A stretch of 64,000 bases of DNA from an uncultured Clostridium sp. GTDB taxonomy: Bacteria > Bacillota > Clostridia > TANB77 > CAG-508. The stretch covers positions 2,089 to 66,088 of the forward strand of contig CABQAZ010000006.1 in assembly GCA_902462295.1 (NCBI GenBank). The letters run 5' to 3'. The translations under genes and the position numbers were made by a program. Shown here piece after piece: positions 1 through 60,048 of this stretch (position 1 is the stretch's first letter; each line of letters begins with the position of its first letter). The notes beneath the pieces are model-generated. The model had not been told where the DNA came from and searched no databases. It saw only the letters and a list, made by a program, of their open reading frames with translations.

Positions 1-1204
1 TTAAACTTAGTTCTTTTTTGTTTTTTCCTTGTGCATCTGTTTCATATATCTTTATTGTTTCTGCTTTAATTGTTCTTCCTATTTGTATTTTCACATCATC
101 CAATTTTGAATTTGATTTTTTAGTTCTAATATAAGGTGAGGTACATAACATATATTCGTGAGTATTCTCATCATCTGGATAATATTCAGTTCCAAGTGTA
201 CTATCACTTACTTTACATATTGTACATTGGCCATTTTGAACATTATGTTTTTCTTCCCATACTTTTCCACATGTGTTGCAGTATTTTTCATGCCAAGCAT
301 TTCCATAATGATATGAAGTATCCTTATGTTTACACTCATATCCACATACTTTACATTTTCCGGTTACTGTATATTGATAATTGTCATTATCATTATCATA
401 TCCTCCAAATATGTGATATTCTTTTCCTAATGTTTTTCCACAATCTTTACATATTTTTGTATGTTGTGTTGCTGTTGTTTTATATTTTACATTCTCGTGT
501 GTACATGGGATTTCTGTTACATTTGTATCATCTTTTACTTCTACATCTGCTGGTAACTTAAAGGCTACATTTTTGGCTGTATATGCTCCATTTTTATCTT
601 TTACTTTTATTCTTATTCTATAATATTCATCATTCTTCAAGCTCAACTTTCCTTTACTTATTTTTACATCTGCTAGTTTATTACTTGAATACACACTTTT
701 ACTATTATTTGTATCTATTACTTCTATTGATTTTATTTCTTGTCCTGTTGATTTCATTGATATTTCTACATTATTACCTGAATATTGTATACCTGTTATA
801 TTTGGCGCATTATTTAAAACATAATATTTTCCATCTTTATTTGTTACACTTACTACTTTTCTTGTTTTTTCCATATTATTTGCTCTAGCTATTATTGTTA
901 TTACTTGTGTTTTATTCTTTTTTGGTAACGCTCTCTTTGGAATCTCATACACCATCTGTGTATAATAATTTCCACTCATTTTTGAACTATTTGCTATAAA
1001 CTTTGTACTTAAGATATCATTATTATCCATCGTACTTTTTTCTTTATTATAAATCCTTACAGCATTTAATTGAGACGTTGCTGGTGCCTTTATTGTTATT
1101 TTTATTGCTTCTAGCTTTTTATTTGATGGTTTCGCTATTGTTATTGATGGTGAATTTGCCAATTCTGTAAATCCATCTGTTGCTGCATGGCTTACATTTG
1201 TCAT
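1..1204 (-). CDS. Cys-rich secreted/surface protein, body of a phase-variable gene (continues beyond window start; lacks a functional 5' end in this orientation)
   Basis: Own translation of the reverse strand gives an open frame from 1204 to position 1 (MTNVSHAATDGFTELANSPSITIAKPSNKK...ICKDCGK...CKVCGY...CNTCGK...CTICKV). In-frame stop at 1271-1273. Absent from the ORF track because it runs off the edge. Plus-strand ORFs 136-888 are its shadows. Confidence 0.8.
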   Translation of the reverse strand, partial: MTNVSHAATDGFTELANSPSITIAKPSNKKLEAIKITIKAPATSQLNAVRIYNKEKSTMDNNDILSTKFIANSSKMSGNYYTQMVYEIPKRALPKKNKTQVITIIARANNMEKTRKVVSVTNKDGKYYVLNNAPNITGIQYSGNNVEISMKSTGQEIKSIEVIDTNNSKSVYSSNKLADVKISKGKLSLKNDEYYRIRIKVKDKNGAYTAKNVAFKLPADVEVKDDTNVTEIPCTHENVKYKTTATQHTKICKDCGKTLGKEYHIFGGYDNDNDNYQYTVTGKCKVCGYECKHKDTSYHYGNAWHEKYCNTCGKVWEEKHNVQNGQCTICKVSDSTLGTEYYPDDENTHEYMLCTSPYIRTKKSNSKLDDVKIQIGRTIKAETIKIYETDAQGKNKKELSL

Positions 1205-1220
1205 TGCGCAAATTGTAAAT
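1196..1220. repeat. Left 25-bp inverted repeat of the invertible switch
   Basis: ATTTGTCATTGCGCAAATTGTAAAT is the exact reverse complement of 1620-1644. Confidence 0.95.
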
Positions 1221-1459
1221 TTTCTGTCAAAATCAAAAGGCTTTTTTGTTTTAAAATAAAAAAATTTCTTCTACTAATAATATAAATATCTTATTATAGT
1301 ACATCAATTTCATTATTTATTATTACTACAACTGTAATGGTTTGAGTAAATTATCATTTTAAAGATGTTTATAATTGTAAATAATAAGTTTATTTGTATA
1401 AAATAATTTAGAGTTATCTGAAAGTAATTAAGGTGAAACCATAAAAAATATACATAAAA

Positions 1460-1488
1460 TTGACAATTTTGCATACTTGTGGTATAAT
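1460..1488 (+). promoter_or_regulatory. Sigma-A-type promoter inside the invertible segment
   Basis: TTGACA (1460-1465), 17-bp spacer ending in TGG (extended -10), TATAAT (1483-1488). Confidence 0.8.
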
Positions 1489-1566
1489 AAGAGGTGTAAG
1501 AAAAATTTAACAAATTCTTACTATAATTCAATTAACGCATTACAGAAGAGAAAGGGGAGATTTTAT

Positions 1567-1656
1567 ATGAGTAATAAAACTTTAAATTCATTAATAAAAA
1601 TCTTATTATTTTGCACAATATTTACAATTTGCGCAATGACAAATTTTATATTGTAA
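1567..1656 (+). CDS. Detached leader ORF: start codon plus signal-peptide codons, terminated after 29 aa in this orientation
   Basis: RBS AAAGGGGAG 8 nt upstream. Encodes MSNKTLNSLIKILLFCTIFTICAMTN then FIL*. The last 8 sense codons before FIL lie in the right IR. Confidence 0.7.
   Translation: MSNKTLNSLIKILLFCTIFTICAMTNFIL
1620..1644. repeat. Right 25-bp inverted repeat of the invertible switch
   Basis: ATTTACAATTTGCGCAATGACAAAT. Confidence 0.95.
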
Positions 1657-1911
1657 AATACAAATGCTTTCTTTTTGGAATTTATAATAAAATAACAGAA
1701 TTAATTGAACAATAACAAGATATAATTTTGTTAGTTCTTTTTTTTATTTAATAAATTTAGATTATATAACAATATTTGAAACTTATATATGAAAATCTAT
1801 AATAAAAGTCTTGAATATTAACATAATATATGATATACTATTCACGTAACAATTAACAGTTTTGCTTTATAATAAAAGTAAAAGCGCATTCAAATAATAG
1901 GAGGAAACTAT

Positions 1912-2373
1912 ATGATAACAACAAATGAAATTCGGAGTGCAAAGCTGAAGGATTTATTCTGTGCAACAATTCAAAAAGAATTGACATGGGAAGAAGCAGA
2001 AAAGTATCCATTTACGGTGGAAGAATTTCCAGAATGCAGTACAGCAAGTGAGCTGTTGAGAATAGCTGTGGAATTAACCATTGAAGAGCTGGGCGGAGAA
2101 GTTTCAGAAATGGCTGTGAGAGATATAGAAGAAGAAGTTAAAAAAGAAATCTTATCAGATTTGATAGAAACACAAGATACAATTCTATTAAAGAAAGACG
2201 GCCAATATTATGATTTGGCATACATGGAAATACTGGATCCAAGATACAAAATCATAAGAATTGAGCCACTTTATAAATATGGAACTGAAAAAGATTTTTC
2301 ACTTGAAGAGGGAGAGTTTTCTGTGGAAAAAGGAGTTTTTGAAAAATATTTGAATGAAAATAATGAGGAGTAA
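1912..2373 (+). CDS. Hypothetical acidic protein (153 aa)
   Basis: ORF with AGGAGG RBS and its own TTGAAT-17-TATACT promoter. No family recognised. Confidence 0.6.
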   Translation: MITTNEIRSAKLKDLFCATIQKELTWEEAEKYPFTVEEFPECSTASELLRIAVELTIEELGGEVSEMAVRDIEEEVKKEILSDLIETQDTILLKKDGQYYDLAYMEILDPRYKIIRIEPLYKYGTEKDFSLEEGEFSVEKGVFEKYLNENNEE

Positions 2374-2604: not shown

Positions 2605-3750
2605 ATGTTAAAAAAAGTGGCAATACTAGCAAATGGAGGAGACGTATCAGGATTTAATGCAGTTATAAGAGCTATAATAAAAACTGCAGAACATAATAAT
2701 ATAGAATGTTATGGATTTATAGACGGATACAATGGATTACTAAAAAATAATTATGTAAGACTAAGTACAGCAAATGACCAAAGTGCATCAGGAATATTAC
2801 CAAAAGGTGGTTCAATAATAGGTTCATCAACAAATGCAAATGTATTCAACTATAAAGTAGTAGGAGAAAATGGAGAAATTGAATATAAAGATTTATCAGA
2901 TGTATGTGTAGAAAATATAAAAAAAGACGGATTTGATTGTATATTTACATTAGGAGGAGATGGAACGCAAAAATCAGCAAGAGATTTTTCAACAAAAGGT
3001 GTAAATGTAATAGGTGTTCCAAAAACAATAGATAACGATGTTGCATGTACAGATATAACATTTGGATATAATACAGCAGTATCAGTTGCAGCAGAAGCAT
3101 TAGATAGATTACACACAACAGGGGAGACACATCACAGAATAATGGTATTAGAAGTTATGGGAAGATATGCAGGATGGATAGCACTAGAATCTGCAATAGC
3201 AGGAGGAGCAGATGTTGCATTAATTCCAGAAATACCATATGATATAAATAAAGCAGTTGATAAAATAAATGAAAGAAGAGCAAAAGGAAAAGAATTCAGT
3301 ATAGTTGTAGTAGCAGAAGGTGCTGCACCAAAAGGCGGAGAAATAACAGTTGAGGGAACAAGAAATAATGGTGCAGGAGTTGATAATAATAAACTTGGAG
3401 GAGTTGGTCAAGTAGTAGCAAAACAACTTGAAAAATTAACAGGTTTAGAAGCAAGAAATACAACACTTGGATATATGCAAAGAGGTGGAACTCCAACTGC
3501 ATTTGATAGAGTATTATCAACAAAATATGGAGCTAAAGCTATGGAACTTGCATTAAATGGTCAATTTGGTGTATTGGCAGTATTAAAAAATGGAAAACTT
3601 GATAGTGTTTCATTAGAAGATGTTGTTGGAAGAAACACAAAAATTGGTGCTGTTTCTGGAAATACAGCAGAAAGTAATTTAAGAAAAGTTACAATGGATG
3701 ATGATTTAGTAAAAACAGCTAGAGATATTGGACTTTGTTTAGGTGACTAA
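2605..3750 (+). CDS. pfkA: ATP-dependent 6-phosphofructokinase (long form)
   Basis: NGGDVSGFNAVIR, TLGGDGT, PKTIDND and MQRGG motifs. GGDG rather than GGDD suggests ATP dependence. Confidence 0.85.
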   Translation: MLKKVAILANGGDVSGFNAVIRAIIKTAEHNNIECYGFIDGYNGLLKNNYVRLSTANDQSASGILPKGGSIIGSSTNANVFNYKVVGENGEIEYKDLSDVCVENIKKDGFDCIFTLGGDGTQKSARDFSTKGVNVIGVPKTIDNDVACTDITFGYNTAVSVAAEALDRLHTTGETHHRIMVLEVMGRYAGWIALESAIAGGADVALIPEIPYDINKAVDKINERRAKGKEFSIVVVAEGAAPKGGEITVEGTRNNGAGVDNNKLGGVGQVVAKQLEKLTGLEARNTTLGYMQRGGTPTAFDRVLSTKYGAKAMELALNGQFGVLAVLKNGKLDSVSLEDVVGRNTKIGAVSGNTAESNLRKVTMDDDLVKTARDIGLCLGD

Positions 3751-15473: not shown

Positions 15474-15615
15474 TATGAAATTCAAGAAATTCTAATGCAT
15501 TTTATGGGTCCTTTCCACTATCGTGAACTCTTACCATAAAATTACATAGAATTTCTAAAATTTCTCCATGCACATTCATTATTTCATTCAAAACTTATAT
15601 TTAAAGACTTCTTGA
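15474..15615 (-). repeat. MITE-like repeat, truncated copy (left arm of a 142-bp inverted pair)
   Basis: 138 of 142 nt match the reverse complement of 18529-18670. Confidence 0.9.
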
Positions 15616-15748
15616 TGTTAATATATTAAAATCTTAATCATGTACCATTTTTATACAAAATTTGCATTTTACATAAAAAAGTGATACAATATATAACATA
15701 GAAAATTTTTTGAAACCAAAAGTATTAAGAATGACAGGAGGTAGAAAG

Positions 15749-18509: not shown

Positions 18510-18529
18510 TATTAGATTATTATTAGTAT

Positions 18530-18716
18530 CAAGAAGCCTTAAAATATAAGTTTTGAATGAAATAACGAATGTGCATGGAGAAATTTTAGAAATTCTATGT
18601 AATTTTATGGTAAGAGTTCACGATAGTGGAAAGGACCCATAAAATGCATTAGAATTTCTTAAATTTCATAATAAACTGAGGAATGGAATGAAAAACTTAT
18701 ATTTTAAGGCTTCTTG
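18530..18716 (+). repeat. MITE-like element, full copy (187 bp) with 25-bp terminal inverted repeats
   Basis: CAAGAAGCCTTAAAATATAAGTTTT (18530-18554) pairs with AAAACTTATATTTTAAGGCTTCTTG (18692-18716). No ORF. Confidence 0.8.
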
Positions 18717-18842
18717 TAAGTATAATAAGTAAAATGTACTATTTTATTTATTTCTATCTTGCAATTTTTGGTAAAAATTTTTTTATTAATGTAATAGTAA
18801 AAAGTACAATTAGTTAAGCATACATTGTACAGAGGTGAAAAT

Positions 18843-19007: not shown

Positions 19008-19052
19008 AATATATATTATTAATATTATATTAAACAAAAGGAGTTTATGCAG

Positions 19053-20708
19053 ATGAAAGTGATAGCAATTTATTCAAGAAAATCAAAGTCAACAGATAGA
19101 GGAGAATCTATTATAACACAAATGAAACTTTGTGAAGAGTATATAAAGAAAAACTATTTTGACGAAGAAATTAAAATTATATATTATAATGAGGGAGAGG
19201 GGAAATCTGGAGCAGACTCTCAAAGAATAAAATTTAATAAATTAATGAGAGATGCTAAAGAGAAAAAGTATAATGTTTTAATATGTTATAGATTGGACAG
19301 AGTTGCAAGAAATGTTTCAGATTTTTCAGATTTAATAGATGAATTAACATCATATAACATTAGTTTTATTTCAGTAAAAGAACAATTTGATACAACAACG
19401 CCTATGGGTCGTGCAATGATGTATATTGCAAGTGTATTTGCACAATTAGAAAGAGAAATAGGAGCAGAAAGAATAAAAGATAATCTTACTGAACTTGCTA
19501 AATCTGGAAGATGGCTTGGAGGAACTACACCAACAGGATATAAATCTATAGGATTTGAGACAATACAAATAAAAGAAATAAATGAAAATAATGAAATTGA
19601 AAAAAAGAGAAAAAAAGCATATAAACTTGAGAAACAAAAAGAAGAAGTTGATTTAATTGAATTGTTATTTAGAAAAATTGAAGATTTAAAGTCATTAACA
19701 GCGGTAGAGACATATCTGATTAATAATAATATACTTACTAAAAACGGAAAAAGATATACTAGATTTACGCTTTCTAATATTTATAGAAATATAGTGTATG
19801 CAAAAAATGATATAGAAATGTACCAATACTTAAAAGAGAAAAACATTGAAGTTTATGCTGTAGAACAAGATTTTAATGGCAAACAGGGAATGATTGCCTA
19901 TAATAAAACAAAACAGCAAAAACATAAGTCTGTAATTAAGAATGAAATGGATGAATGGATAATATCTGTAGGTAAACATGAGGGATACATTGATGGAAAG
20001 AGATGGATTAATATTCAAAACATATTAGATAGAAATCAAAATAAAAGATATAGAAGACCTAGAAAAAATAAAGCATTACTATCAGGTATATTAAAATGTG
20101 AATGTAATGGGTATATGAGACCAAAAATTAGTTCTGGTAGGACTGACCAATATGGAAATGATAGATTTTTTTATATGTGTGAAATAAAAGAGTTAAGCAG
20201 ATTACATAAATGTGATATAAAAAATATTGATGGAAATGAATTAGATAGAGAATTGCTAATGCAAATGAAACAATGGTATGCACCAAATTTTAAAATAGTA
20301 AAAGAGTTAAAAGGAATAGTAAACAATAAATGTGAGCAAACTGAAAATGAAATAGAAATTGATAGATTGAGCAAATTATATAAAAAAAATGAAAAAAATT
20401 TAATAAATTTGATAGATAGAATAAAATATATAGATATTAGTTTAATAGATGATATAAATAAAGAAATTAAAAGTTTAAAAGAGGAAAATAAGCAAATAAA
20501 TGAAAGTATAAATGAATTAATGAAAAATTATAATAATTATAATTTGGAAATACCTGAAGATAAAATTTCAGAATTAGCTATTCAAGTAATAGAAAAATCA
20601 TTTAAAGCATTTTATGGATTGGATATTTTAGAGCAAAGAAAAATTTTAAGAATGTTCATATCAAAAGCTGTATGGAATGGAGAATATGTTCAAATAGATT
20701 TTTTTTAG
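19053..20708 (+). CDS. Large serine recombinase (SpoIVCA-like)
   Basis: VIAIYSRKSKSTDRGESIITQ (catalytic Ser region), YRLDRVARN, resolvase core, then recombinase and zinc-ribbon (CECNG...C) plus coiled-coil tail. Track start 19047. Confidence 0.9.
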   Translation: MKVIAIYSRKSKSTDRGESIITQMKLCEEYIKKNYFDEEIKIIYYNEGEGKSGADSQRIKFNKLMRDAKEKKYNVLICYRLDRVARNVSDFSDLIDELTSYNISFISVKEQFDTTTPMGRAMMYIASVFAQLEREIGAERIKDNLTELAKSGRWLGGTTPTGYKSIGFETIQIKEINENNEIEKKRKKAYKLEKQKEEVDLIELLFRKIEDLKSLTAVETYLINNNILTKNGKRYTRFTLSNIYRNIVYAKNDIEMYQYLKEKNIEVYAVEQDFNGKQGMIAYNKTKQQKHKSVIKNEMDEWIISVGKHEGYIDGKRWINIQNILDRNQNKRYRRPRKNKALLSGILKCECNGYMRPKISSGRTDQYGNDRFFYMCEIKELSRLHKCDIKNIDGNELDRELLMQMKQWYAPNFKIVKELKGIVNNKCEQTENEIEIDRLSKLYKKNEKNLINLIDRIKYIDISLIDDINKEIKSLKEENKQINESINELMKNYNNYNLEIPEDKISELAIQVIEKSFKAFYGLDILEQRKILRMFISKAVWNGEYVQIDFF

Positions 20709-27898: not shown

Positions 27899-28033
27899 TC
27901 ATCTGTGAATAAAAAATCTAAATATAAAAACACATTTGAATACAATGATATTTAATAAATTTCTGAAAAGATAAGTAAGTAATTGACTAAATCAAATAAT
28001 TATGTTACAATAAATGTATAGGAGGTACATAAA

Positions 28034-29335
28034 ATGGAACGAAAAATGTCGAAAAAATTGCTAGAATGGAAAAATGATACAGAAAAGACACCATTAATTT
28101 TATATGGAGCTAGACAAGTAGGAAAGACCTATACTATATTATCATTTGGAAAAGAGAACTATAAGAATGTAGCATATATAAATTTTGAGGATAATAGTGA
28201 GATATCAAAAATTTTTGAACAAGATTTAGAAGTAGAAAGAATTATAAAAGAATTAAGTGTAAAGTTAGGAATAACCATATTAGAAGAAGATACATTAATA
28301 TTTTTTGATGAGATACAAGCTTGTGAAAGAGCTTTAACATCATTAAAATATTTTGCAGAAAGTAAGACAAAATATCATGTTGTAGCAGCAGGTTCATTAC
28401 TAGGGATTGCAATTAATAGACAAAAATATTCTTTTCCAGTTGGAAAAGTAAAAATGCTTACATTATATCCATTAGATTTTGAAGAATTTTTGTGGGCATT
28501 AGACAAAAAAGATTTGGCAGATATGATAAGACAAGCTTTTTCTGAGGATAAAGAATTTTCATTACATAGTTTAGCAAATCAGTATTATAGATTATATTTG
28601 GCAATTGGTGGAATGCCTAGAGCAATTTTAGAATACAAAGAAAAACAAGATATGGATTTTGTAACAGCAATTTTGAAAGATATTAATAATTCATATATAG
28701 CAGATATGGCTAAATATGCAAGTTCCACAGAAACAACAAAAATTATGGCAGTATATAATATTATTTCAGCACAATTAGCTAAAGAAAATAAAAAATTTCA
28801 ATATAAATTAATAAAATCAAGTGCAAGAGCTTATGAATATGAAACAGCAATTAATTGGTTAAATGCTTCAGGAATCATAAATCAATGTACAAAAATCAAA
28901 GAAGGAAAATTGCCACTTTCAGCATTTATAGAGCCAGAAAGTTTTAAAATCTATATGAGTGATGTGGGATTATTGTGTAATAAATTTGGAATACCTACTA
29001 ATATTGTAATTGTGGAAAATGATAACATGAATGATTTTAAAGGAGCTTTGGCTGAAAATTATGTATGCAATAGTTTAGTTCAATGTGGATTAAAACCATA
29101 TTACTGGGAATCTAATGGAAAAGCAGAAGTGGATTTTGTAGTGCAAGATAAAGAGGGAAATATTATTCCGATTGAAGTTAAATCAAGTATACATACAAGG
29201 TCAAAAAGTCTAAATGTTTTTAAAAGTTTATATAAAATTCCTTATTCTATTAGGATATCAACTAAAAATTTTGGATTTGAAAATGATATAAAATGTATTC
29301 CTTTGTATAGTGTATTTTGTTTAGATAAGTTATAA
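28034..29335 (+). CDS. AAA-type ATPase with DUF4143-like C-terminal domain
   Basis: Walker A GARQVGKT, Walker B IFFDEIQ. Overall arrangement of the COG1373-type ATPases. Confidence 0.7.
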   Translation: MERKMSKKLLEWKNDTEKTPLILYGARQVGKTYTILSFGKENYKNVAYINFEDNSEISKIFEQDLEVERIIKELSVKLGITILEEDTLIFFDEIQACERALTSLKYFAESKTKYHVVAAGSLLGIAINRQKYSFPVGKVKMLTLYPLDFEEFLWALDKKDLADMIRQAFSEDKEFSLHSLANQYYRLYLAIGGMPRAILEYKEKQDMDFVTAILKDINNSYIADMAKYASSTETTKIMAVYNIISAQLAKENKKFQYKLIKSSARAYEYETAINWLNASGIINQCTKIKEGKLPLSAFIEPESFKIYMSDVGLLCNKFGIPTNIVIVENDNMNDFKGALAENYVCNSLVQCGLKPYYWESNGKAEVDFVVQDKEGNIIPIEVKSSIHTRSKSLNVFKSLYKIPYSIRISTKNFGFENDIKCIPLYSVFCLDKL

Positions 29336-29618
29336 GTGTTTTGATGAAGCGGATATAAAAAGTGTCCACTTCGGATAGGCTCAAAGTGTCCGTTTGAAAG
29401 CTTTTGTGAAGTGTTTCAAGCGGACATTTTGACTATATAAAAAATCCTTATATTTCAATGAAAATTAAGAAATAGGGTGTGTCGTGTTTAAAGGGTAAGA
29501 TACAGGGGCAAGGTTAAAGTTGGAAAATAGGATGTATCTTGTAAAAGATGGAAAGAAGTAGATGGAGGATAGAATAAAGGGCGAAATTAGAATTAGGATA
29601 AAATATAAATTTTCTTAA

Positions 29619-30669
29619 TATAGGTTTACAATAGATATGTCACACTAAAGAATAGAAAAAGGAAATACCAATATGATATAATGTTTTTACCACAAAACTA
29701 ATATCGAAAGAAGGTATTTCCTATGAATAGTATAACACAAGATATAATATTTAAGCAATCAGTTGTAGAATATTCATTAAAACATGGAGTGACAGAAGCA
29801 GCAAAAAGATATAAACAGCATAGAAAAACAATATACAGATGGAGAGAAAAGTATGACGGAAGCAGAAAATCATAAGTAAATAAATCAAGAAGACCCCATT
29901 CACATCCAAATCAACATACCCAGGAAGAAATAAAAATGATAAAGAAATATAAGGCACAAAATCCAGATGTTGGGTTAGTGGTATTGTGGGTAAAATTGAT
30001 GAAAAACGGATATACAAGGCAAATAACGAGTTTGTATAGGGTGATGCAAAGGCTAGGAATATATAAAAAGACACCAAGTAAGATGTGAAATATGTGCCAA
30101 AGAAGTGTATGTCAAAAGAATTAAAAGAGCTATAAGAAAAATATTATCAATATACAGCAATAGATGAGTATACAAGGCAAAGAGTATTATGGGCGAGCAA
30201 AGAACATAGTACATATGCATTAACACAATTTATAGAAATAATAATAAAGAAATTTAAATATAAAATAGAATGTATACAAACAGATAATGGATTTGAATTT
30301 ACAAATAGATTGAATTCAAAAAAAGCCAAAGAGAAGACGATGTTTGAAAAGAAGCTGGAAGAGCTAGGAATAGAACATAAACTAATAAAGCCAAGAACAC
30401 CAAGACACAATGGAAAAGTTGAAAGAAGTCATAGAAAAGACCAAGAAAGATTTTATTACAAGAGAATATTTGTAAGTTTTGAAGATTTTAAAGAAAAATT
30501 AAGGCATTGGTCAAGAGAGTACAATAACTTTCCAATGAAACCATTAGGATGGAAAAGTCCAAATGAGAAATATGAGGAATTTCAAGCATTGTAGAGCCAA
30601 CATATCATATTTGGTATATGAAACACTAGATTTATCAATAAAGTGTGACATATGTTTGACAAACCTACA
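29619..30669 (+). mobile_element. Decayed IS (IS481-family-like, rve-type transposase)
   Basis: About 26-bp imperfect terminal IRs (TATAGGTTTACAATAGATATGTCACAC and GTGTGACATATGTTTGACAAACCTACA), flanked by a 25-bp direct repeat. Confidence 0.7.
29724..30594 (+). pseudogene. Transposase pseudogene (premature stop, internal deletion/frameshift)
   Basis: The HTH part MNSITQDIIFKQSVVEYSLKHGVTEAAKRY...DGSRKS ends in a stop. The DDE part (DVKYVP...YQYTAIDEYTR...IQTDNGFEF...PRTPRHNGKVERSH) is in other frames. Confidence 0.75.
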
Positions 30670-30760
30670 TAGGATAAAATATAAATTTTCTTAAAAACTA
30701 GAAAAAATAAGAATAATATGGTACAATTTTATTATAAAAAGATTTTTATAGGAGGATAAA

Positions 30761-31180
30761 ATGAATTCTAAAGCATATACAGAAGTTAATTTTATCATAA
30801 ATGAAATGAGTAATGAATTGTCAAATAAAATTCCAAAAGAGATAAAAGAAATGATTAAAGAAAAAATGGATGAAACATATGAATTTTACATAGATGATGA
30901 AGAATGGGAAGAAAAGGAATTGTTAGAAGATACTGAAAAAATTTTATCAGTTTTATATACAGATTATATAGCAAATGAAGAAGAAAAAAAGGTAATTTTA
31001 AATAAAGAAAAGATTATTATGCAAAAAAAATACGAGAACACAATTCAAACAAAGAATTTATGCGATGTATTTCCAAATAAAAAATATTTTAATGAAGAAA
31101 AAGAAATAGTGAAAGTTGAATATAAGAAAACATGGTATCAAAAAATAATTGAATATATAAGGCTAAAGATTAAGATATAA
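30761..31180 (+). CDS. Hypothetical acidic protein (139 aa)
   Basis: ORF with AGGAGG RBS. No family recognised. Confidence 0.55.
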   Translation: MNSKAYTEVNFIINEMSNELSNKIPKEIKEMIKEKMDETYEFYIDDEEWEEKELLEDTEKILSVLYTDYIANEEEKKVILNKEKIIMQKKYENTIQTKNLCDVFPNKKYFNEEKEIVKVEYKKTWYQKIIEYIRLKIKI

Positions 31181-31233
31181 AACAACTAAAAGTGTAAGTG
31201 AAATTTATATAATAATTAATATTGGGAGGAAAA

Positions 31234-33966
31234 ATGTCAGTTAATTTAAAATATAAACATCAGCAAAAAACGTATCAACTTATGTGGCAAGAATTAGAAA
31301 AATATGGAATGGCAGCATTTTCATATCCAACAGGATGTGGAAAATCATTTCCGCCACTTAAGTATATAGAAGATTATTTAAATCATCAGCAGAAAGGAAA
31401 TACATTAATTGTTGTTCCATATAATATTATTGCTGATCAATTTAAAGATTATATAAAACAATATGTGGATAATGGAAATAAAAGATTAAAAAATAAAAAT
31501 ATTATGGTAATTACATATTCAAAACTTGCTTTATGGATGAAATATGCAAAAAATTATGAAGTCGATATAGCAATTTTTGATGAAGCTCAAATGCTTGGTG
31601 CAGAAACTTATGAACCCGCATTTGAAAAATTAAGAGAACAGTATTCAGAAGCAAAATTGATAGCAATGACTGCAACACCAGAAAGAATGGATAACAGAAA
31701 TATGTTATATGAAAAATTTGGAGAACATGTAGTATATGAAATGAGTTTAACCGAGGCATTGAGTGGTTCTAAAGAGGGGGAAGTCATTTTAAAAGCACCC
31801 AAATATGTCAGAGTAATATCTCAATTAAAACCACTTCTTTCAATATATGAAGAAAAAATTGCTAAATATAATAACCCTAATAGAAAACCAATCCTATCGG
31901 AAAAATATCAAAGATTAGCTAATATTGTAAGCAATGCTCCTGGTATGGAAGATGTCTTAGCCCAAGCAATTACTAAGAAAAATGGAAAATTTATTGTTTA
32001 TTGTAAAAATAGAGAAGATATGTTCAAAAAAATGAAAGATGCAAAAGCAATATTTGGAAAAGTAAATGATAATATAAAAATGGATTATTTGTTATCTATT
32101 GATTCTAATGGAACAGGAAAAACAACCCCACAGAACTTAAAATCATTAAGAGAATTTGAAGAAAGTGAATACAATGATACCCTTCAACTACTATTTTGTG
32201 TAGATATGCTTAACTTAGGAAAACACATTGATGGTGAAAAGCTTGATGGAGAAGTATTTTTTAGAGAAACTTATTCATCTCAAGTATATAAACAGCAAAT
32301 GGGGAGAATTATGGTTCCAGAAGATAAAGGAGAACAAAAAATAATAATAGATGCTGTAAATAACTGGCTTAGACAGGTAGATGCTTTTGATGAACTAGTT
32401 CAAGCTATTGGTATTGGAAATGGAAAAAATCCAGAAAATAACTATGATTTATTTAAATTAACAGCTGAAGAAATTGAGTTTCTAGATTTGTTAAGAGAAA
32501 TTGGTGAAGAACTAAGATATAACTGCTTTGGTACATATGAACAAATAATTGAATGGTTAGAAACTCATGATGGTAAAATGCCACAAGCTAGACTTAGAAA
32601 AAACGGCAGATATATTAACGGTGAGGAACTTGAAGAAAATGAACTTGAAGAAAGAAAATTATATGGTAGATGGCTTAACTGCCCTGAAAAGAAAATGCTT
32701 GATAAATATATAGGAATAGACATTAAAGATATACCAGAAGAATGGCAAGAAAAAATACAAAAATTAAGAAGTTTTGGGTTAGGACTAAAGAAAAAAGGGG
32801 TATATGAGAGATTAATAGAATGGTTAGATATGCATAATGGAAAAATGCCTAAAGCATCAGCTACATTTAGAGATGAAAACGGAGATTATATTAGAGCTGA
32901 AAATCTTTTGCCAGAGCAAAAAGAAGAAAAAAATTTATATAATGATTGGACTAAAAGCGATGAAATCAAAATGCTAAAAAAATATATTGGTGTTTCTCTT
33001 GAAGAAATACCAGAAAGCGAAGAATGTAAAGAAATAATAAAGATACTTAGATCTTATGGACTAGGAATTTCTTTGCATGAAGAGTATATTGACTTTTTAA
33101 AAAGATACGGAAGAGAACCACGCCAAGGAATAAGAAGAAATGGAAAAACACTTGGAAAAAATGAAACAACAGATGAGCAGAAAAAAGAAAAAAGTTTATA
33201 TTATAGATGGAATAAATCAGAAGAAAAAAAGATTTCAGATGAATATTCTGGAATGCCATTAGATGAGGTCCCAGAAAATTGGAGAAAAAAAATTGAAGAA
33301 CTCCGTATATTTAACGTAGGTAATAAAGATATAAGACCTTTGTTTGAAAAAATGGTTGAATGGCTTGAAATTCATAATGGAAGAACTCCTTTTGGGTATA
33401 ACGGTATTCCGGTTTCAGAATTAAATGAAGAATTGTTAGCAGAAAGAACACTATTTAATGAATGGATTAATAGTGATTTGAAAAAAACAACTTGGAAATA
33501 TATTAGCCGTGATTTATCAGAAGTACCTGAAGAATGGAGAGAACAAGTTGGAAAAATGAGAGAATTAGGAGTTGGGCTAGATATTTTTGATGAAATGCTT
33601 ATATGGTTTAATGAAGGTCATAAAGGAAAATTGCCTTTAGCTAGATTTTGTAAAGATGGACATGTTATTAGCTCCACTCAAATGACAGAAGAACAAAAGA
33701 AAGAATCTAGTTTTTCTCAAAGGTGGAGAATAAGTCCATTAAAAAAAGCCTTAGATACCTATGCCGATAAAACTATTGATGAAATTCCAATAGAATGGAG
33801 AAATCAAATATCAACATTAAGAAAAAATGGAATATTTGGTAAAACGAAACAGGAAAGAATTACAGAAAGATTAAAAAAATCAGTAGCAAGAAATGTAGAA
33901 TATAATTCAAATGTAAGAGAGGAGATTGGGAAAAGTATTAGAAAGGAGAAGGAAAAATTAGTATAG
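31234..33966 (+). CDS. SF2 helicase (DEAQ box) with five tandem helicase-associated (HA)-like repeats
   Basis: PTGCGKS, FDEAQMLG, MTATPER, QQMGRIM. The C-terminal half is about 85-aa repeats (EWLxxHxGxxP...LYxxW...IPEEW...LRxxGxG). Confidence 0.8.
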   Translation: MSVNLKYKHQQKTYQLMWQELEKYGMAAFSYPTGCGKSFPPLKYIEDYLNHQQKGNTLIVVPYNIIADQFKDYIKQYVDNGNKRLKNKNIMVITYSKLALWMKYAKNYEVDIAIFDEAQMLGAETYEPAFEKLREQYSEAKLIAMTATPERMDNRNMLYEKFGEHVVYEMSLTEALSGSKEGEVILKAPKYVRVISQLKPLLSIYEEKIAKYNNPNRKPILSEKYQRLANIVSNAPGMEDVLAQAITKKNGKFIVYCKNREDMFKKMKDAKAIFGKVNDNIKMDYLLSIDSNGTGKTTPQNLKSLREFEESEYNDTLQLLFCVDMLNLGKHIDGEKLDGEVFFRETYSSQVYKQQMGRIMVPEDKGEQKIIIDAVNNWLRQVDAFDELVQAIGIGNGKNPENNYDLFKLTAEEIEFLDLLREIGEELRYNCFGTYEQIIEWLETHDGKMPQARLRKNGRYINGEELEENELEERKLYGRWLNCPEKKMLDKYIGIDIKDIPEEWQEKIQKLRSFGLGLKKKGVYERLIEWLDMHNGKMPKASATFRDENGDYIRAENLLPEQKEEKNLYNDWTKSDEIKMLKKYIGVSLEEIPESEECKEIIKILRSYGLGISLHEEYIDFLKRYGREPRQGIRRNGKTLGKNETTDEQKKEKSLYYRWNKSEEKKISDEYSGMPLDEVPENWRKKIEELRIFNVGNKDIRPLFEKMVEWLEIHNGRTPFGYNGIPVSELNEELLAERTLFNEWINSDLKKTTWKYISRDLSEVPEEWREQVGKMRELGVGLDIFDEMLIWFNEGHKGKLPLARFCKDGHVISSTQMTEEQKKESSFSQRWRISPLKKALDTYADKTIDEIPIEWRNQISTLRKNGIFGKTKQERITERLKKSVARNVEYNSNVREEIGKSIRKEKEKLV
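32535..33846 (+). repeat. Five tandem coding repeats of about 255 bp (protein-level HA-like modules)
   Basis: Repeat starts: YEQIIEWLETHDGKMP, YERLIEWLDMHNGKMP, EEYIDFLKRYGREP, FEKMVEWLEIHNGRTP, FDEMLIWFNEGHKGKLP. Confidence 0.75.
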
Positions 33967-34451
33967 GCTAAAAATATCCGTTTTAAGGCTTTTTATGAAT
34001 ATTGGAAGCGGACATTTTAACTATATGGAAAATACTTATTAGTATTTTTTGAGAAGTTTGATAAAAATTAAATTTTTTTTATACACAGGGGAGGACAAAA
34101 TCGATTTTTATGAGCAAATAAGTGAAGGAGTTAAAACTCTTTCACTTATTTTAGTATTTTTCAAAAAAATAATCATAAAATTAAATAAAAAAGGAAATAA
34201 AACAAATGGCAAAACAAGAACAATTGCAATTTTTTTGCATATTCAAAGAAGAAAAAGTCGATTTTCAAACATTATTAGAAAAGGTATTTATAGAATTTAT
34301 CCAAGAAAAAGAAAATAAGAAGAAATCTTCTAAATCTTGAAATACAAGAAAGTTTCAAGAATATAGTTAAATTTTTTTTGAACTTTGTAAAATAAGAAAG
34401 AAATGATATAATATTCTTTAGCAGATGATTGCTAAAGAATAGGAGGCGAAA

Positions 34452-36074
34452 ATGATCTTTAGCAATTACAATAATCAAACATTTAAAGTAGCAATATATA
34501 TACGACTTTCACGAGAAGATGGAGACAAACAAGAAAGTGAAAGTATTGGAAATCAAAGGGACATCATAATGAGATACATTAAAGAAAATCATTTGCAATT
34601 CATAGACGAATATGTAGATGATGGAATATCTGGGACAACATTCGAAAGACCTGGTTTTCAAAGAATGATATCTGACATTGAGCAACAAAGGATTAACATG
34701 GTTATAACAAAAGACTTATCAAGGCTTGGAAGAGAGTATATACAGACAGGTCAATACATTGAAAAATATTTTCCAGAACACAATATAAGATATGTTGCTA
34801 TAAATGATGGGATTGATACATTTAGCAATACATCATGTAATGATATAACACCATTTAAATCTATTTTAAATGATATGTATGCAAAAGATATTTCAAAAAA
34901 AGTCAGAAGTGTTATAAAAGAAAAACAAATAAAAGGCGAATATATGTGTACAGTTGCACCATATGGATATAAAAAAGATAAAGTTCAAAAAAATCATTTA
35001 GTAATTGATGAAAATACAAGCTATATAGTAAAAGATATTTTTAACATGTATTTAAATGGAAATAGTGTTTATTCAATAAGAGATAATCTAAATAAAAGAA
35101 AAATTCAATCTCCAAGTGGATATGCAAAGAAACAAATTGAAATAAAAAAGTGGAACAGTGTAACAATTTTAAACATATTATCAAACAAGGCTTATATTGG
35201 AACAACAGTAGCCAATAAAAGAACTAATTTATCTTACAAATCTAAAAAAAGAATTAAGGTACCAATAGAAGAACATATCATAACAGAAAACACTCATGAA
35301 CCTATAATAGAAAAAGAAGATTTTGAAAAAGTACAATTTTTATTAGCAAAAAAAAGCATAAATAAAAAAAATAGGCATGAATACTTATTTAGAGGATTAA
35401 TTAAGTGCAAAACATGTCACAGCAATCTTGAAGTTGGTGCAAAACTAACAAAAAAAGGTAAAGAAATTAAAAATCCAATTCCATACATAACTTGTAGAAA
35501 TTCAAAAAAAGGAATTTGCCAACCACAACATTTAAATTACTATAAATTTGAAAAAGAAACATTAGAATATTTAAAAAAATTTTTAACTTTATATACAGAT
35601 AAAGACGAATTAAAGGAAATTTATAAGGAATATAAAAATAATAAAGATATTAATATTGCAAAGTACAAAAAAGAAATAAAGTTAATAGAAAGTAAGATAA
35701 GTAACATTTCAAGCCAAATTGATAACATATATTTTGACAAAATCAACCATGTTATATCACAGGAGGATTATTTTAGATATACAAATAAAATTATAAATGA
35801 AAGAGATTCTTTGATAAATCAAAAAAATGAAATAAACAAACTTATAAATAGTATAAAAGAAAAACAAGGTAAATATTCAGAAAAGGAATTAAATGAAACA
35901 GTTAAAGAATTTTTAAATAATCCATCCAAAAAAACAATATATAGATTAATAGATTATATTGAAATAGATGAAAATAAAAAAATATATATTCATTTTGCAT
36001 TTAGTAAATTAAGTTGTATAAGTGATTGGATAGATGAAACAATTGAATTAAAAGAGTTACTAAATCAGGAGTAA
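34452..36074 (+). CDS. Large serine recombinase
   Basis: VAIYIRLSREDGDKQESESIGNQ (catalytic Ser), TKDLSRLGREY, recombinase domain, Cys-rich zinc ribbon (CKTCHS...C) and coiled-coil tail. Confidence 0.9.
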   Translation: MIFSNYNNQTFKVAIYIRLSREDGDKQESESIGNQRDIIMRYIKENHLQFIDEYVDDGISGTTFERPGFQRMISDIEQQRINMVITKDLSRLGREYIQTGQYIEKYFPEHNIRYVAINDGIDTFSNTSCNDITPFKSILNDMYAKDISKKVRSVIKEKQIKGEYMCTVAPYGYKKDKVQKNHLVIDENTSYIVKDIFNMYLNGNSVYSIRDNLNKRKIQSPSGYAKKQIEIKKWNSVTILNILSNKAYIGTTVANKRTNLSYKSKKRIKVPIEEHIITENTHEPIIEKEDFEKVQFLLAKKSINKKNRHEYLFRGLIKCKTCHSNLEVGAKLTKKGKEIKNPIPYITCRNSKKGICQPQHLNYYKFEKETLEYLKKFLTLYTDKDELKEIYKEYKNNKDINIAKYKKEIKLIESKISNISSQIDNIYFDKINHVISQEDYFRYTNKIINERDSLINQKNEINKLINSIKEKQGKYSEKELNETVKEFLNNPSKKTIYRLIDYIEIDENKKIYIHFAFSKLSCISDWIDETIELKELLNQE

Positions 36075-36097
36075 AAATAACTGTGAAAATTAAGTCA

Positions 36098-36447
36098 ACC
36101 CCATCAGGATTAACCAGAGGAACAATATAAATAGAAACAGAATCAAATAAACGTCTAGCAGAAAAATTCCAAATAGTTAAATTATTCTGTATTGCATTAC
36201 AGTATTCATATAAAAATTCTAAAAGAACAATAGAAGTTATCCACTCATTTGCATGGTAACTTGCAGAATAAAAAACTTCTTTTTGTCCACGTCCAACTCT
36301 AACATAAGGAATATCTTTACCCATAATACTCTTTCCAATAGAACCTGTTTGAATAAATGGATAAGACTGTTTTAAGATATTCAAATTTTCATACAATAAA
36401 TTAGAACTAAAAACAAAATCGTCCATAAAAACCTCTTTTTCCGGCAT
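36098..36447 (-). CDS. M14 peptidase, 5' segment (the ORF as it stands reads on into the element to 36001)
   Basis: GKSIMGKDIPYVRVG...SASYHANEWITS (HxxE zinc motif)...IVPLVNPDGVDL, then unrelated residues. Confidence 0.8.
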
Positions 36448-44502: not shown

Positions 44503-45840
44503 ATGGAAATAGAAGAAATAAAAGAATTAGTAGAAAATAAGAAATTCACACAATTAAAAAACAAGCTAAAAGAAATGAATAGTGCTGATATTTCAGAAAT
44601 ATTAGATGAACTAGAAGATAAAGAAAGTGTAATAATAGTATTTAGATTACTTGCAAAAGAAAAAGCAGGTGAAACATTTTCTCATATGGAATCAGATATG
44701 AGAGAAAAACTAATACAAGATTTAACAGATACAGAGTTAAAAAACGTATTAGATGAATTATTTATGGATGATACAGTAGACTTAATAGAAGAAATGCCAT
44801 CAAATGTTGTTCCTAAAATCTTAAAAGCAATTTCACATGATGACAGAAAAATTATAAATGAATTACTAAAATATCCAGACGATAGTGCTGGAAGTATAAT
44901 GACAACAGAATTTATAGACTTAAAAGAAAATATGACAGTTGAAGAAGCTTTAAAAAGAATAAGAAAAATTGCAGTAGATTCAGAAACAATATATACATGT
45001 TATGTTTTAGACGAAAAAAGAATATTAAAAGGAATTATAAATATAAAAGATATATTGTTAGGAGAAAGAGAAGTAAAAATAGGAACATTAATGGAAACTA
45101 ATATAATATCTGTAAATACTTTAGAAGACCAAGAGGATGTAGCAAAAAAATTTGATAAATATGATTTCTATGCATTGCCTGTAGTAGATTATGAAAATAG
45201 ATTAGTAGGAATTATAACAGTTGATGACGCTATTAATGTTATACAAGATGAAGTATCAGAAGATTTTGAAAAAATGGCAGCCATAACACCTACAGAAGAG
45301 GGATATTTTCAAACATCAGTATTTAAACATGCAAAAAGTAGGATATTATGGTTATTAATATTAATGTTATCATCAGCACTTACGGGTAATATATTAACTA
45401 AATATGAGGATGCATTTGCTGTAGTGCCAATATTAGTTTCATTTATCCCTATGATAATGGGAACTGGAGGAAATTGTGGTTCACAAAGTTCAACACTTAT
45501 AATTCGTGGACTTGCCACAGACGAAATAAAATTAAAAGATGTATTCAGAGTACTTTGGAAAGAAATTAGAGTTGCAATAGTTGTTGGAATTGCTTTAGCT
45601 ATTGTAAATACAATAAGAATAATGATTCAATATCACAATATACAACTTGCAATCGTTCTTGGAATAACTTTAATTGCTACAGTTGTTGTTTCTAAAGTAA
45701 TAGGCTGTACATTACCTTTACTTGCTAAAAGATTAAAATTAGACCCTGCAATTATGGCAGCACCATTAATTACAACAGTTGTTGATGTGTGTTCAATATT
45801 AGTGTATTTTCAAGTTGCAACACATATTATGGGACTTTAA
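44503..45840 (+). CDS. mgtE: Magnesium transporter MgtE (copy 1)
   Basis: N-domain, tandem CBS and TM domain (GGNCGSQSSTLIIRGLAT). Confidence 0.9.
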   Translation: MEIEEIKELVENKKFTQLKNKLKEMNSADISEILDELEDKESVIIVFRLLAKEKAGETFSHMESDMREKLIQDLTDTELKNVLDELFMDDTVDLIEEMPSNVVPKILKAISHDDRKIINELLKYPDDSAGSIMTTEFIDLKENMTVEEALKRIRKIAVDSETIYTCYVLDEKRILKGIINIKDILLGEREVKIGTLMETNIISVNTLEDQEDVAKKFDKYDFYALPVVDYENRLVGIITVDDAINVIQDEVSEDFEKMAAITPTEEGYFQTSVFKHAKSRILWLLILMLSSALTGNILTKYEDAFAVVPILVSFIPMIMGTGGNCGSQSSTLIIRGLATDEIKLKDVFRVLWKEIRVAIVVGIALAIVNTIRIMIQYHNIQLAIVLGITLIATVVVSKVIGCTLPLLAKRLKLDPAIMAAPLITTVVDVCSILVYFQVATHIMGL

Positions 45841-50686: not shown

Positions 50687-50717
50687 TTGACTCTTCCCTT
50701 AAGGTTAGGTGTATATT
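50687..50717 (+). promoter_or_regulatory. MerR-type promoter (19-bp spacer with dyad)
   Basis: TTGACT, 19 bp containing CCTTAAGG, then TATATT. Confidence 0.55.
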
Positions 50718-50735
50718 AAATTTAGGAGGAAAAGA

Positions 50736-60020: not shown

Positions 60021-60048
60021 TTTTAGGACTCTTATTACATATTAATGG

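Follow-up and report, generated by a model that had tools for sequence, protein, structure and literature searches.

The stretch of DNA analysed here (the window) is 64,000 nucleotides long and comes from an uncultured human-gut Clostridium. Close to its left end, a perfect 25-bp inverted repeat encloses 399 bp, forming an element of 449 bp that carries a predicted promoter, a ribosome-binding site and the beginning of a coding sequence, and that adjoins a long minus-strand reading frame, the body gene (Table 1). The repeated 25-mer, ATTTGTCATTGCGCAAATTGTAAAT, lies on the plus strand in the left copy and on the minus strand in the right copy, with no mismatches between them. The perfect repeat reported in an earlier note on this DNA was thus borne out, and none is expected by chance, with no matches in 100 dinucleotide-preserving shuffles. 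The repeat extends inward imperfectly, to 36 nt at 89% (1196-1231 and 1609-1644). No further copies of the 25-mer were found in the 64-kb window at up to 3 mismatches, also when a shortened core was used.

Table 1. Features of the switch locus, with functions as predicted.
Feature	Position	Strand	Description
Headless body gene	1-1195	-	Predicted mature part of a secreted protein (..VSHA/ATDGFTELANSPSITIAKPS..); exits the window at its left edge
Putative proximal recombination site (left repeat arm)	1196-1220		In frame, at the 5' end of the body gene; minus strand encodes FTICAMTN
Inner cassette segment	1221-1619		399 bp; directed away from the body gene in the window
Predicted sigma-70/SigA-type promoter	1460-1488	+	TTGACA (1460-1465), 17 nt, TGgTATAAT
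Ribosome-binding site	1554-1559	+	GGGGAG, 7 nt ahead of the ATG (1567)
Predicted signal-peptide exon	1567-1644	+	26 codons, MSNKTLNSLIKILLFCTIFTICAMTN; last 8 codons (FTICAMTN) within the distal repeat
Putative distal recombination site (right repeat arm)	1620-1644		3' end of the signal-peptide exon
"Parking" flank	1645-1656	+	Exon continues into FIL and a stop codon; product is a 29-aa peptide
Spacer and 153-aa ORF (1912-2373)	1657-2373	+	Faced by the parked promoter; pfk next at 2605-3750

The promoter matches the consensus at 12 of 12 positions, has an extended -10 element (TG) and is the top-scoring site in 1000-2700, a score that reflects the consensus match only; transcription from it would be expected to begin near 1495. 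The predicted signal peptide has K4 and K11 in its n-region, followed by a 14-residue hydrophobic core, and appears as a helix at residues 3-22 in an AlphaFold model. Once fused to the body, its c-region would read NVSHA/A, in which S28 and A30 (positions -3 and -1) are invariant across 14 homologues. The promoter, the ribosome-binding site, the ATG and the FIL ending had all been described in the earlier note, and each was found again on rereading the sequence. A lipoprotein signal was rejected, as there is no lipobox ahead of either Cys. Coupling to a riboswitch, as at flgB of C. difficile, was likewise unsupported, because no Rfam family was matched in 900-2700 and the 5' UTR fold was no better than that of shuffled sequence (z = -0.2).

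As it stands in the window, the ORF that begins on the cassette (1567-1656) encodes MSNKTLNSLIKILLFCTIFTICAMTNFIL and ends in the parking flank, which has no resemblance to any body gene; the corresponding flank in a second lineage reads FFILNTIIVAN before its stop codon. The left repeat copy lies in the same codon phase as the minus-strand ORF, as the earlier note had observed, its FTICAMTN leading in frame into VSHAATDGF.... The body frame is open from 1270 to the window edge, with an in-frame stop at 1273-1271 and 398 open codons beyond the site, and in this orientation the gene is without promoter, ribosome-binding site or start codon. When 1196-1644 was inverted in silico, the promoter, the ribosome-binding site and the ATG (1273, minus strand) preceded MSNKTLNSLIKILLFCTIFTICAMTNVSHAATDGF..., an ORF uninterrupted over all 424 codons available. 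Comparison with other assemblies, described below, strongly supports the view that the window represents an OFF state, and that repeats placed inside the coding sequence would let recombination move the promoter and the signal-peptide exon together. Since the start codon and signal peptide are on the invertible DNA, the promoter, the start codon and the export signal would all be lost at once in the OFF state.

The 153-aa protein encoded beyond the parking flank gave nothing above threshold in Pfam or NCBIfam. Its ORF has promoter-like sites of its own at 1776-1803 and 1846-1873. No terminator-like sites were found in 1000-2700, including the interval between the cassette and this ORF, so read-through from the predicted parked promoter is possible. 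In three strains (L019, L020 and L023), the 153-aa ORF and pfk are present and the cassette is absent.

The body protein and its family

A full-length orthologue of the body protein (P0001) has 573 aa and is 89% identical. No Pfam or NCBIfam family scored above threshold for the body protein. The AlphaFold model (pLDDT 74) has tandem beta-sandwich domains at residues 36-240, followed by Cys/His-rich beta-hairpins, and Foldseek returned only generic Ig/FN3 matches. Judged from this model, the family most likely comprises secreted Ig/FN3-like proteins with Cys/His-rich modules. The N-terminus of P0006, MSNKTLNSLLKILLCCTIFTICAMTNANVSQA..., is the predicted fusion, and P0005 carries a diverged, apparently fixed version of it. 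A protein-profile scan of the GTDB species representatives yielded one distant homologue, from "uncultured Clostridium sp. UMGS1576" (L004), whose signal peptide is continuous with the rest of the gene and where the inverted repeat is absent. This suggests that the switch is an add-on to an ordinary secreted-protein gene.

The gene calls for P0001, P0002, P0003 and P0009 start at the ATG within the site, and that for P0004, arranged as in the window, reads through from the back end of the cassette. Such mis-starts and upstream read-through make the family look cytoplasmic, and it is then missed as a likely phase-variable surface antigen.

Arrangements of the cassette in other assemblies

More site-bearing loci are present in other assemblies; a degenerate 25-mer pattern had 0 matches in the GTDB species-representative genomes, from which it follows that the source species with this site is not represented in that collection. 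We collected 35 site instances, some of which are one contig fetched twice. In all 35, homology between junction types begins and ends at the 25-mer, and every breakpoint across the assemblies falls within it. Every instance, whether in switchable or silent paralogues, encodes FTICAMTN in frame with the body. The left flanks of the site fall into two classes, one with the signal peptide (..TGCACAAT) and one without it (..TGAC[A/G]G[A/G]AA).

At three loci (L001, L007 and L034), this cassette is joined in frame to a body gene. Relative to the body gene, the L001 cassette is the reverse complement of those in L003 and L009 (95%, versus 64% in the same orientation). The inner segment of the window is 99% identical to that of L007 in the same orientation; it matches the reverse complement of L001 at 80% identity. 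The predicted promoter is kept in every cassette copy and the ribosome-binding site in L001, L003, L007 and L034; different lineages retain both the promoter and the signal-peptide exon. The fusion product in L007 reads MSNKTLNSLIKILLFCTIFTICAMTNVSHAATNGF..., so that with P0006 there are two existing fusions of the kind that the earlier note had predicted from the flip, with the signal peptide joined in frame to a body. Both L007 and L034 have two head-to-head bodies with the cassette between them, joined in frame to one body and separate from the second. The fused partner is a P0006-type body in L001, and probably also in L034, and a P0002-like body in L007, while the cassette is detached from P0001-, P0003- and P0004-type bodies. 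An assembly chimera was rejected for L007 and L034, because the shared repeat of 25-36 nt is much shorter than the assembler k of 119-141 and the same architecture occurs in two lineages from unrelated samples.

Other copies of the gene are headless, with the site in the same codon phase and no cassette (L005, L006 and L010, all after argS, together with L008 and L011). In L005, L008 and L011, in-frame stops lie 6-11 codons upstream of the site, and there is no start codon or signal peptide. One metagenome assembly contains three site-bearing loci (L009-L011), one with the cassette and two silent. The strain of the window is present in the samples ERR636396 (ERZ918890), ERZ27250556 and ERZ27242930, and L018 lies in the MAG GCA_964311415.1. 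The 5' end of a P0002-type body (138 of 138 nt recovered identical) is fused in L007 and silent in L008, the strains being close relatives.

At the window's own locus, beside the 153-aa ORF and pfk, all of the approximately ten independent assemblies have the OFF junction, and the locally flipped ON junction, with the back end of the cassette against the FIL flank, was seen in none of them. The opposite orientation, which the earlier note had proposed to seek in reads and related genomes, exists in L001 relative to L003 and L009, but was not seen at the locus where it was predicted; local flipping there is presumed. Fused and unfused junctions are seen only when different assemblies are compared. 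The sole hint of heterogeneity within a population is a Logan contig (L014) that begins 5 nt before the distal site. We did not find the reciprocal junction of a long-range inversion: look-ups of 153-aa protein variants gave only OFF or cassette-less loci, one of them (P0023) being the window's own sequence, and when homologues of the L008 AAA_14 protein were sought, thousands of near-identical family members came back, without the exact protein among them.

These arrangements bear on how much the switch controls. It might be a purely local two-state inverton, in which the 399-bp flip governs the adjacent body only and the arrangements in L001, L007, L034 and the silent copies are fixed strain differences. 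The window's perfect, inverted sites, 399 bp apart, have the classical geometry of such an element, the silent loci adjoin housekeeping genes (argS, for example), a setting in which large inversions could carry a cost, and the missing reciprocal junction fits as well. We nevertheless consider a purely local switch unlikely: the cassette-less copies keep both the in-frame site and the inner flank TGAC[A/G]G[A/G]AA, which is hard to explain without recombination, a single body 5' end occurs both fused and silent, and it is the local ON junction that was never observed. The one-gene phase switch proposed in the earlier note therefore held in that the promoter and signal-peptide exon move together, but not as a merely two-state device, since the site heads several paralogues.

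A second alternative is that the repeat and the detached exon are the scar of an old rearrangement and the body a permanently silent pseudogene. The uniform OFF state of the window's locus would fit a relic, as would the lack of a nearby recombinase and the signs of decay in the family, in which P0009 is frameshifted and some strains are without the cassette. However, the repeat is still perfect at 25 of 25 positions and the promoter still at full consensus, the body frame runs uninterrupted for 398 codons or more in the window and over the whole of its orthologue, where a dead AT-rich locus would soon gain stops, and closely related strains have fused junctions with a 99%-identical cassette. 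We therefore regard a relic as improbable.

The 25-bp site and the nature of the exchange

The centre of the site, as read from the sequence, is an 8-bp palindrome, TTGCGCAA, with imperfect inverted arms on either side, a layout resembling that of a recombinase core site. Including the polymorphisms of the second lineage, its consensus is ATTTACAATTTG[C/T]GCAATG[A/G]CAAAT. In that lineage, polymorphisms at positions 13 and 20 travel together with the outer flank, and 2 of the 25 positions are not the same in the two repeat copies, a divergence that might impede exchange. The ON junction of L001 has body-type alleles, placing the crossover in the inner half of the site, ATTTACAATTTG (inner 12 nt).

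The only recombinase genes in the window are two large serine recombinases (19047-20708 and 34452-36074), located 17 and 33 kb from the switch, and no copy of the 25-mer lies beside either one (shortened core, 3 mismatches). The earlier note was thus right that no invertase is adjacent. No recombinase-like genes flank the L003 locus in the 22 kb read.

The lack of a recombinase would be expected if the exchanges were made by general RecA-dependent homologous recombination between the 5' ends of paralogues, with no dedicated enzyme, as in the sap system of Campylobacter fetus. The paralogues do have long, near-identical 5' coding stretches in common, at which contigs break, and two opposed 5' ends make up an inverted repeat of 176 nt (81%) in L002. 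Even so, we consider RecA-dependent exchange very improbable. The exon and the back end of the cassette have only the 25-mer and its imperfect extension in common, a short stretch for RecA to exchange efficiently; all junction classes switch exactly at the 25-mer, with the alleles mapping the crossover to its inner 12 nt; and the palindrome and arms at its centre are recombinase-core-like.

A probable movable expression cassette

The explanation that we consider probable is that the 449-bp element is a movable expression cassette, acted on by a conservative site-specific recombinase encoded elsewhere and serving a family of headless secreted-protein genes. The element would bring a strong promoter, a ribosome-binding site, an ATG and 26 signal-peptide codons, its two inverted copies of the site being the substrate of the recombinase. 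The same site, in the same reading frame, would head each member of the small family of 5'-truncated genes, and a body would be expressed and exported only if recombination brought the signal-peptide exon of the cassette next to it. The window would show the parked state: the exon runs out after three further codons, pointing towards the 153-aa ORF and pfk, and the neighbouring body stays silent. Inversion between the local pair of sites would turn this body ON, recombination with the site at another headless copy would lead to expression of that copy instead, and in some strains the cassette would toggle between two opposed bodies. For L007-type strains, this predicts a reciprocal junction in which an AAA_14-side flank, ..TTGACAGAAA, is followed by the 25-mer and TTTATATTGTAAAATAC.., leading to the 153-aa ORF and pfk.

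Because the site heads several headless paralogues and the cassette lies between opposed bodies in L007 and L034, the locus looks like a family expression site; it is most likely an expression-site switch for a family of secreted Ig/FN3-like proteins. The switching would presumably be ongoing and reversible within a population and would be carried out by a dedicated recombinase. We infer from sequence that the promoter and signal peptide are functional and the products secreted, and the purpose would be phase or antigenic variation of a surface or secreted protein.

More tentatively, the system may be a genome-dispersed "signal-peptide shufflon", in which one promoter and signal-peptide exon is common to headless genes at unlinked loci (pfk, argS and AAA_14). 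A recombinase encoded at an unlinked position, perhaps representing a new type, would bring this about by site-specific inversions over long distances, and the strong promoter at a dedicated parking site would read into the 153-aa ORF and phosphofructokinase. This wider scheme is possible but doubtful. If true, it would couple the choice of surface protein to expression of a neighbouring metabolic operon. The L008 locus is a 3253-bp closed assembly loop comprising the site, the P0002 body and AAA_14; under the same scheme, it could be an excised circle or an amplified unit, made by the same recombinase on directly repeated sites.

Promoter invertons are familiar from E. coli (fimS), C. difficile (cwpV, flgB and cmr, with RecV) and Bacteroides (PSA, with Mpi). 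They switch a surface or secreted product ON and OFF, the repeats lie outside the coding sequence and ON cells make the same protein; in C. difficile, the recombinase may be encoded far off and act on many sites. The Clostridium segment is similar in being short (about 0.3-0.4 kb), bounded by inverted repeats and equipped with a predicted promoter, but differs in that one repeat is in frame within the gene, the start codon and signal peptide are on the invertible DNA, and more than one gene can use the cassette. In the S-layer sap system of C. fetus, the promoter is on an invertible segment between opposed homologous genes, outside the coding sequence, and exchange, which is largely RecA-dependent, takes place through extended conserved 5' regions. 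L007 and L034 have a similar geometry, with a promoter segment between opposed bodies, whereas the distal flank in the window is non-coding and exchange is confined to a 25-bp site in the signal-peptide codons, with the crossover at the inner 12 nt.

The closest analogue, by layout and presumably without homology, is the vsa system of Mycoplasma pulmonis. In that system, as described in two papers that cite Bhugra 1995 and Shen 2000, site-specific inversion links one promoter, with its ribosome-binding site and the 5' coding sequence that contains the export signal, to alternative silent genes that are without promoter and 5' end; the recombination site (vrs) is inside the coding sequence of every family member, and the HvsR tyrosine recombinase is used (PMC2268961, PMC4534519). 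Here, too, one promoter, ribosome-binding site and 5' coding part would be joinable to alternative silent genes that lack a promoter and 5' end (L005, L008 and L011), and every member has the site within its coding region, always in one frame. The part moved is shorter (78 nt of coding sequence, compared to 714 nt in vsa), and the products differ in kind, being SPase-I-type, predicted secreted Ig/FN3-like proteins rather than lipoproteins with tandem repeats. The Clostridium cassette is also a mini-inverton in its own right: it has a site at both ends and can be parked against non-coding DNA, which gives an all-OFF state. Some silent copies, at least, are found at separate loci (argS, pfk and AAA_14). 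While hvsR adjoins the vsa locus, the Clostridium switch is without a recombinase within approximately 17 kb (window) or in the 22 kb read (L003). In Bacteroides, a recombinase may be encoded far off and act on many sites (PMC2268961).

The earlier note had set this architecture apart from promoter-only and terminator-type switches. Gene-altering or partial intergenic inversions, in which the inverted repeats overlap the coding sequence and one upstream gene part has alternative downstream parts, provide a precedent for it, as described by Milman et al. 2023 (PMC9881135) and Chanin et al. (PMC10028968). The Clostridium repeat likewise overlaps the coding sequence, with a single upstream part and alternative downstream parts, as in such inversions and shufflons. 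In the cases catalogued there, the variable part is usually a C-terminal specificity domain and the recombinase is close by (HsdS, tail fibres, PglX and SusC/D), whereas here the whole mature protein would be swapped, the promoter travels with the 5' exon and there is no recombinase nearby. Neither this protein family nor a promoter-plus-signal-peptide cassette is described in the portions of PMC9881135 and PMC10028968 that were available.

The arrangement would thus place the start codon and export signal, beyond the promoter, on movable DNA in a spore-forming gut Firmicute, a logic so far documented mainly for Mycoplasma antigens. The defined 25-bp site provides a handle for hunting the responsible recombinase. 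With the start codon and export signal both movable, a population could turn off a whole secreted or surface protein, or exchange it for a paralogue, in one recombination event, and the Ig/FN3-like, Cys/His-rich family concerned likely faces host immunity or phages in the human gut.

The cassette and its surroundings

The 25-mer ATTTGTCATTGCGCAAATTGTAAAT (the site) and its exact reverse complement form the two ends of a 449-bp cassette carrying a predicted promoter, an RBS, a start codon and 26 signal-peptide codons. The perfect inverted repeat claimed in the earlier note was borne out, with no match in 100 shuffles, and the likeness extends inward over 36 nt at 89%. No third copy was found in the 64-kb window at up to three mismatches, and a separate search of the window found no extra site copies. 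The promoter, RBS, ATG at 1567 and FIL* end were confirmed by reading of the sequence. As it lies here, the cassette is parked (OFF), pointing into a 153-aa ORF and pfk and away from a headless gene for a mature secreted protein (the body). The left repeat is in phase with the body, as the note had it; the body frame has a stop ahead of it (1273-1271), and start codon and RBS are absent in the present orientation. Fusion would yield a predicted signal peptide with two n-region lysines, a hydrophobic core of 14 residues and, ahead of the predicted cleavage point, S-x-A. Fourteen homologues all keep S28 and A30, and the AlphaFold model has a helix at residues 3-22.

Features of the window, and headless body copies lacking a cassette at other loci
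Feature	Location	Strand	Remarks
Left 25-mer	1196-1220
Predicted promoter	TTGACA 1460-1465, 17-nt spacer, TGgTATAAT to 1488	+	12/12 consensus; top promoter-like site in 1000-2700
RBS	1554-1559	+	GGGGAG; sequence reading
OFF-state ORF	ATG at 1567	+	MSNKTLNSLIKILLFCTIFTICAMTN, then FIL*; sequence reading
Right 25-mer	1620-1644
Left repeat as codons		-	FTICAMTN in frame with VSHAATDGFTELANSPS...; frame open to window edge
Non-coding repeat, ~150-220 bp	18527-18743, 15478-15631, 60032-60107		at least three window copies
Large serine recombinase	19047-20708
AAA_14/DUF4143 ATPase	28034-29335		island
DDE transposase remnants	29723-30594		island; several frames
ResIII/DEAD helicase, 914 aa	31222-33966		island; repeated C-terminal modules
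Large serine recombinase	34452-36074		island right end (apparent)
Tandem paralogues, ~445 aa each	44503-45840, 45863-47197		closely similar; MgtE-like magnesium transporters (by-eye reading)
MerR-type HTH + TraG/VirD4-type type IV coupling-protein domain	50709-52625		one 638-aa ORF, HTH N-terminal; unusual fusion
Spo0A C-terminal DNA-binding domain protein, 178 aa	62383-62919	-	little beyond this domain; no receiver domain
Headless copy	L005, L006, L010		after argS
Headless copy	L008		adjoining AAA_14/DUF4143 gene
Headless copy	L011		adjoining DUF1016-like gene (by-eye reading)

Region 27900-36100 looks like an island. Around the 638-aa MerR-type ORF, no further genes for conjugation were noticed. 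The non-coding repeat resembles a small mobile or MITE-type element and is also inserted 5' of the 153-aa ORF in strain L019 (L019:195-424; 77-87% identity).

Fused and unfused junctions in other assemblies

A protein search among 5.8 billion sequences, with the predicted fused sequence as query, found 16 relatives, none annotated, in four N-terminal groups. P0006 begins as predicted for the fusion (MSNKTLNSLLKILLCCTIFTICAMTNANVSQA...), so that the signal-peptide fusion expected on flipping is seen in other DNA. P0001, P0002, P0003 and P0009 were called from an ATG inside the site and start MTN..., while P0004 reads through from the back end of the cassette (..FDGKFTICAMTN..), like the window. 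More distant relatives have ordinary contiguous signal peptides of different sequence.

Contig L003, assembled from a Hadza gut metagenome, shares its gene order with the window over the 153-aa ORF, pfk, tetR and a pair of ABC genes, and its cassette is OFF in the same orientation. In L001, which begins inside the distal repeat, the cassette is fused to a body. Relative to the body, the inner segment of L001 matches that of L003/L009 at 95% identity as the reverse complement, versus 64% in the same orientation. L001 has an intact fused P0006 (730 aa), and an IS256-family transposase comes next after it.

All 35 site instances, some of them the same contig fetched twice, were aligned with their flanks. 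The likeness between junction classes starts and stops at the 25-mer. Left flanks are of two kinds, a signal-peptide type (..TGCACAAT) and a non-signal-peptide type (..TGAC[A/G]G[A/G]AA), and on the right the site adjoins a body gene or else the parking flank. In the second lineage (that of L001 and L034), C13 and G20 are found in the parked site, and T13 and A20 in body sites and the L001 fused junction. Both positions thus stay with the outer flank, which places the crossover in the inner half, ATTTACAATTTG. By direct reading, the centre of the site is a palindrome, TTGCGCAA, with imperfect inverted arms on either side, an arrangement that fits a recombinase core site.

Several bodies at several loci

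The L007 cassette, 99% identical to that of the window, lies between two head-to-head bodies, the left one fused in frame (MSNKTLNSLIKILLFCTIFTICAMTNVSHAATNGF...) and the right one, P0001, detached. L034, of the second lineage, has the same two-body arrangement, and close by it carries the 3' end of one more body gene. Headless copies lacking a cassette (see table) have in-frame stops 6-11 codons 5' of the site, which no start codon precedes. Three of the loci (L009, L010 and L011) come from one assembly, in which only one cassette was seen; one population therefore has no fewer than three loci with the site. One body 5' end, which agrees with that of P0002 at every one of the 138 nt recovered, occurs fused in L007 and as a silent copy in L008.

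The two ends of the L008 contig (L008:1-3372, sample ERZ27250556, MEGAHIT k119) overlap by exactly 119 nt, so that it closes into a 3253-bp loop of site, P0002 body and AAA_14/DUF4143 gene. The loop may reflect a circle excised between two sites in direct repeat, amplification in tandem, or a graph artefact arising from two paralogues that are nearly identical. AAA_14/DUF4143 genes adjoin bodies in L034 as well as L008, and near-identical members of this family number in the thousands in public data. At the argS locus in L002:1-733, from the same sample as the window-like L012, two paralogues stand head to head, their opposed 5' ends making a 176-nt inverted repeat (81%). The first carries a signal peptide of its own (MNRKLELKTS..), and the 5' end of its body is 97% identical to that of the window. 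In the second, P0005, the promoter and signal-peptide exon match the cassette at 85% identity, but the site is degenerate (three mismatches) and has no partner repeat; P0005 resembles a fossil copy fixed in the ON state. P0009, the silent copy at the argS locus (L005:2560-2850), stops early at ..THEWI*, and its Cys/His-rich C-terminus carries on in another frame, so the gene is frameshifted in the L005 strain.

No Pfam or NCBIfam family was found for the body. Its AlphaFold model (pLDDT 74) has at least two beta-sandwich domains (36-240) followed by Cys/His-rich beta-hairpins, and Foldseek gave generic Ig/FN3 matches only (receptors, adhesins, phage tail parts). The family's N-terminal ~240 residues, a two-domain module with signal peptide, are joined to a metallo-beta-lactamase-fold domain and Big_2 in P0014 and to an NlpC/P60 peptidase domain in P0015. 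Such attachment to other modules suggests a shared, reusable module for surface display or binding. For the body protein itself, a reasonable guess is a binding protein that is surface-exposed or secreted.

State of the switch and its likely operation

The locus seen in the window has the parked OFF junction in about ten independent assemblies (window, L003, L009/L029, L012, L013, L015-L018, L028 and L030), and the locally flipped junction was seen in none of them; three strains have no cassette there. The one hint of a mixture, a faint one, is the Logan contig L014, which begins 5 nt before the distal site; coexistence of both continuations would make a de Bruijn graph fork at that point. L015 (L015:1-150), L016 and L017 keep the promoter and signal-peptide exon in the parked position, but the sequence 5' of the -35 bears no relation to the back end that the cassette usually has. 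It includes a long hairpin (AAGAAAGTCCTTT...AAAGGACTTTCTT, then a T run), with no second repeat in the 316 nt available; this cassette may be truncated.

No recombinase gene lies near the switch. The window has only two large serine recombinases, of which that at 34452-36074 looks like an island end, since it adjoins a degraded IS, an AAA_14 gene and a helicase. None was found in the 22 kb of L003 read.

The phase-variable switch proposed earlier was right in essence, given the alternative junctions in other assemblies, but too narrowly drawn and not unprecedented: inversions that alter coding sequence by joining one upstream part to alternative downstream parts are catalogued (PMC9881135, PMC10028968). 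With its repeats inside the coding sequence, the switch is not of the fimS or cwpV type. Compared with expression-site switching in M. pulmonis vsa, the cassette here, a self-contained mini-inverton, has a parking position that is non-coding and moves the signal peptide only; at least some silent copies sit at separate loci, and no recombinase is nearby in the window or the L003 stretch. The protein family also differs, as does the host, an uncultured gut Clostridium that is spore-forming, judging from Spo0A_C and SpoIIIA genes in the window and L003.

The anatomy and the alternative junctions are demonstrated; from them we infer ongoing reversible switching, with its enzyme and phenotype, along the following lines. 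A site-specific recombinase encoded in trans would exchange DNA inside the 25-mer. In the window strain, now OFF, inversion of the 449-bp element would switch the neighbouring body ON. While parked, the strong predicted promoter would yield a 29-aa dead-end peptide, possibly with read-through into the 153-aa ORF and pfk, since no terminator-like site was found downstream. In other strains, exchange with the site at another headless copy would lead to expression of that copy instead, and in L007- or L034-type strains a flip would toggle between two bodies.
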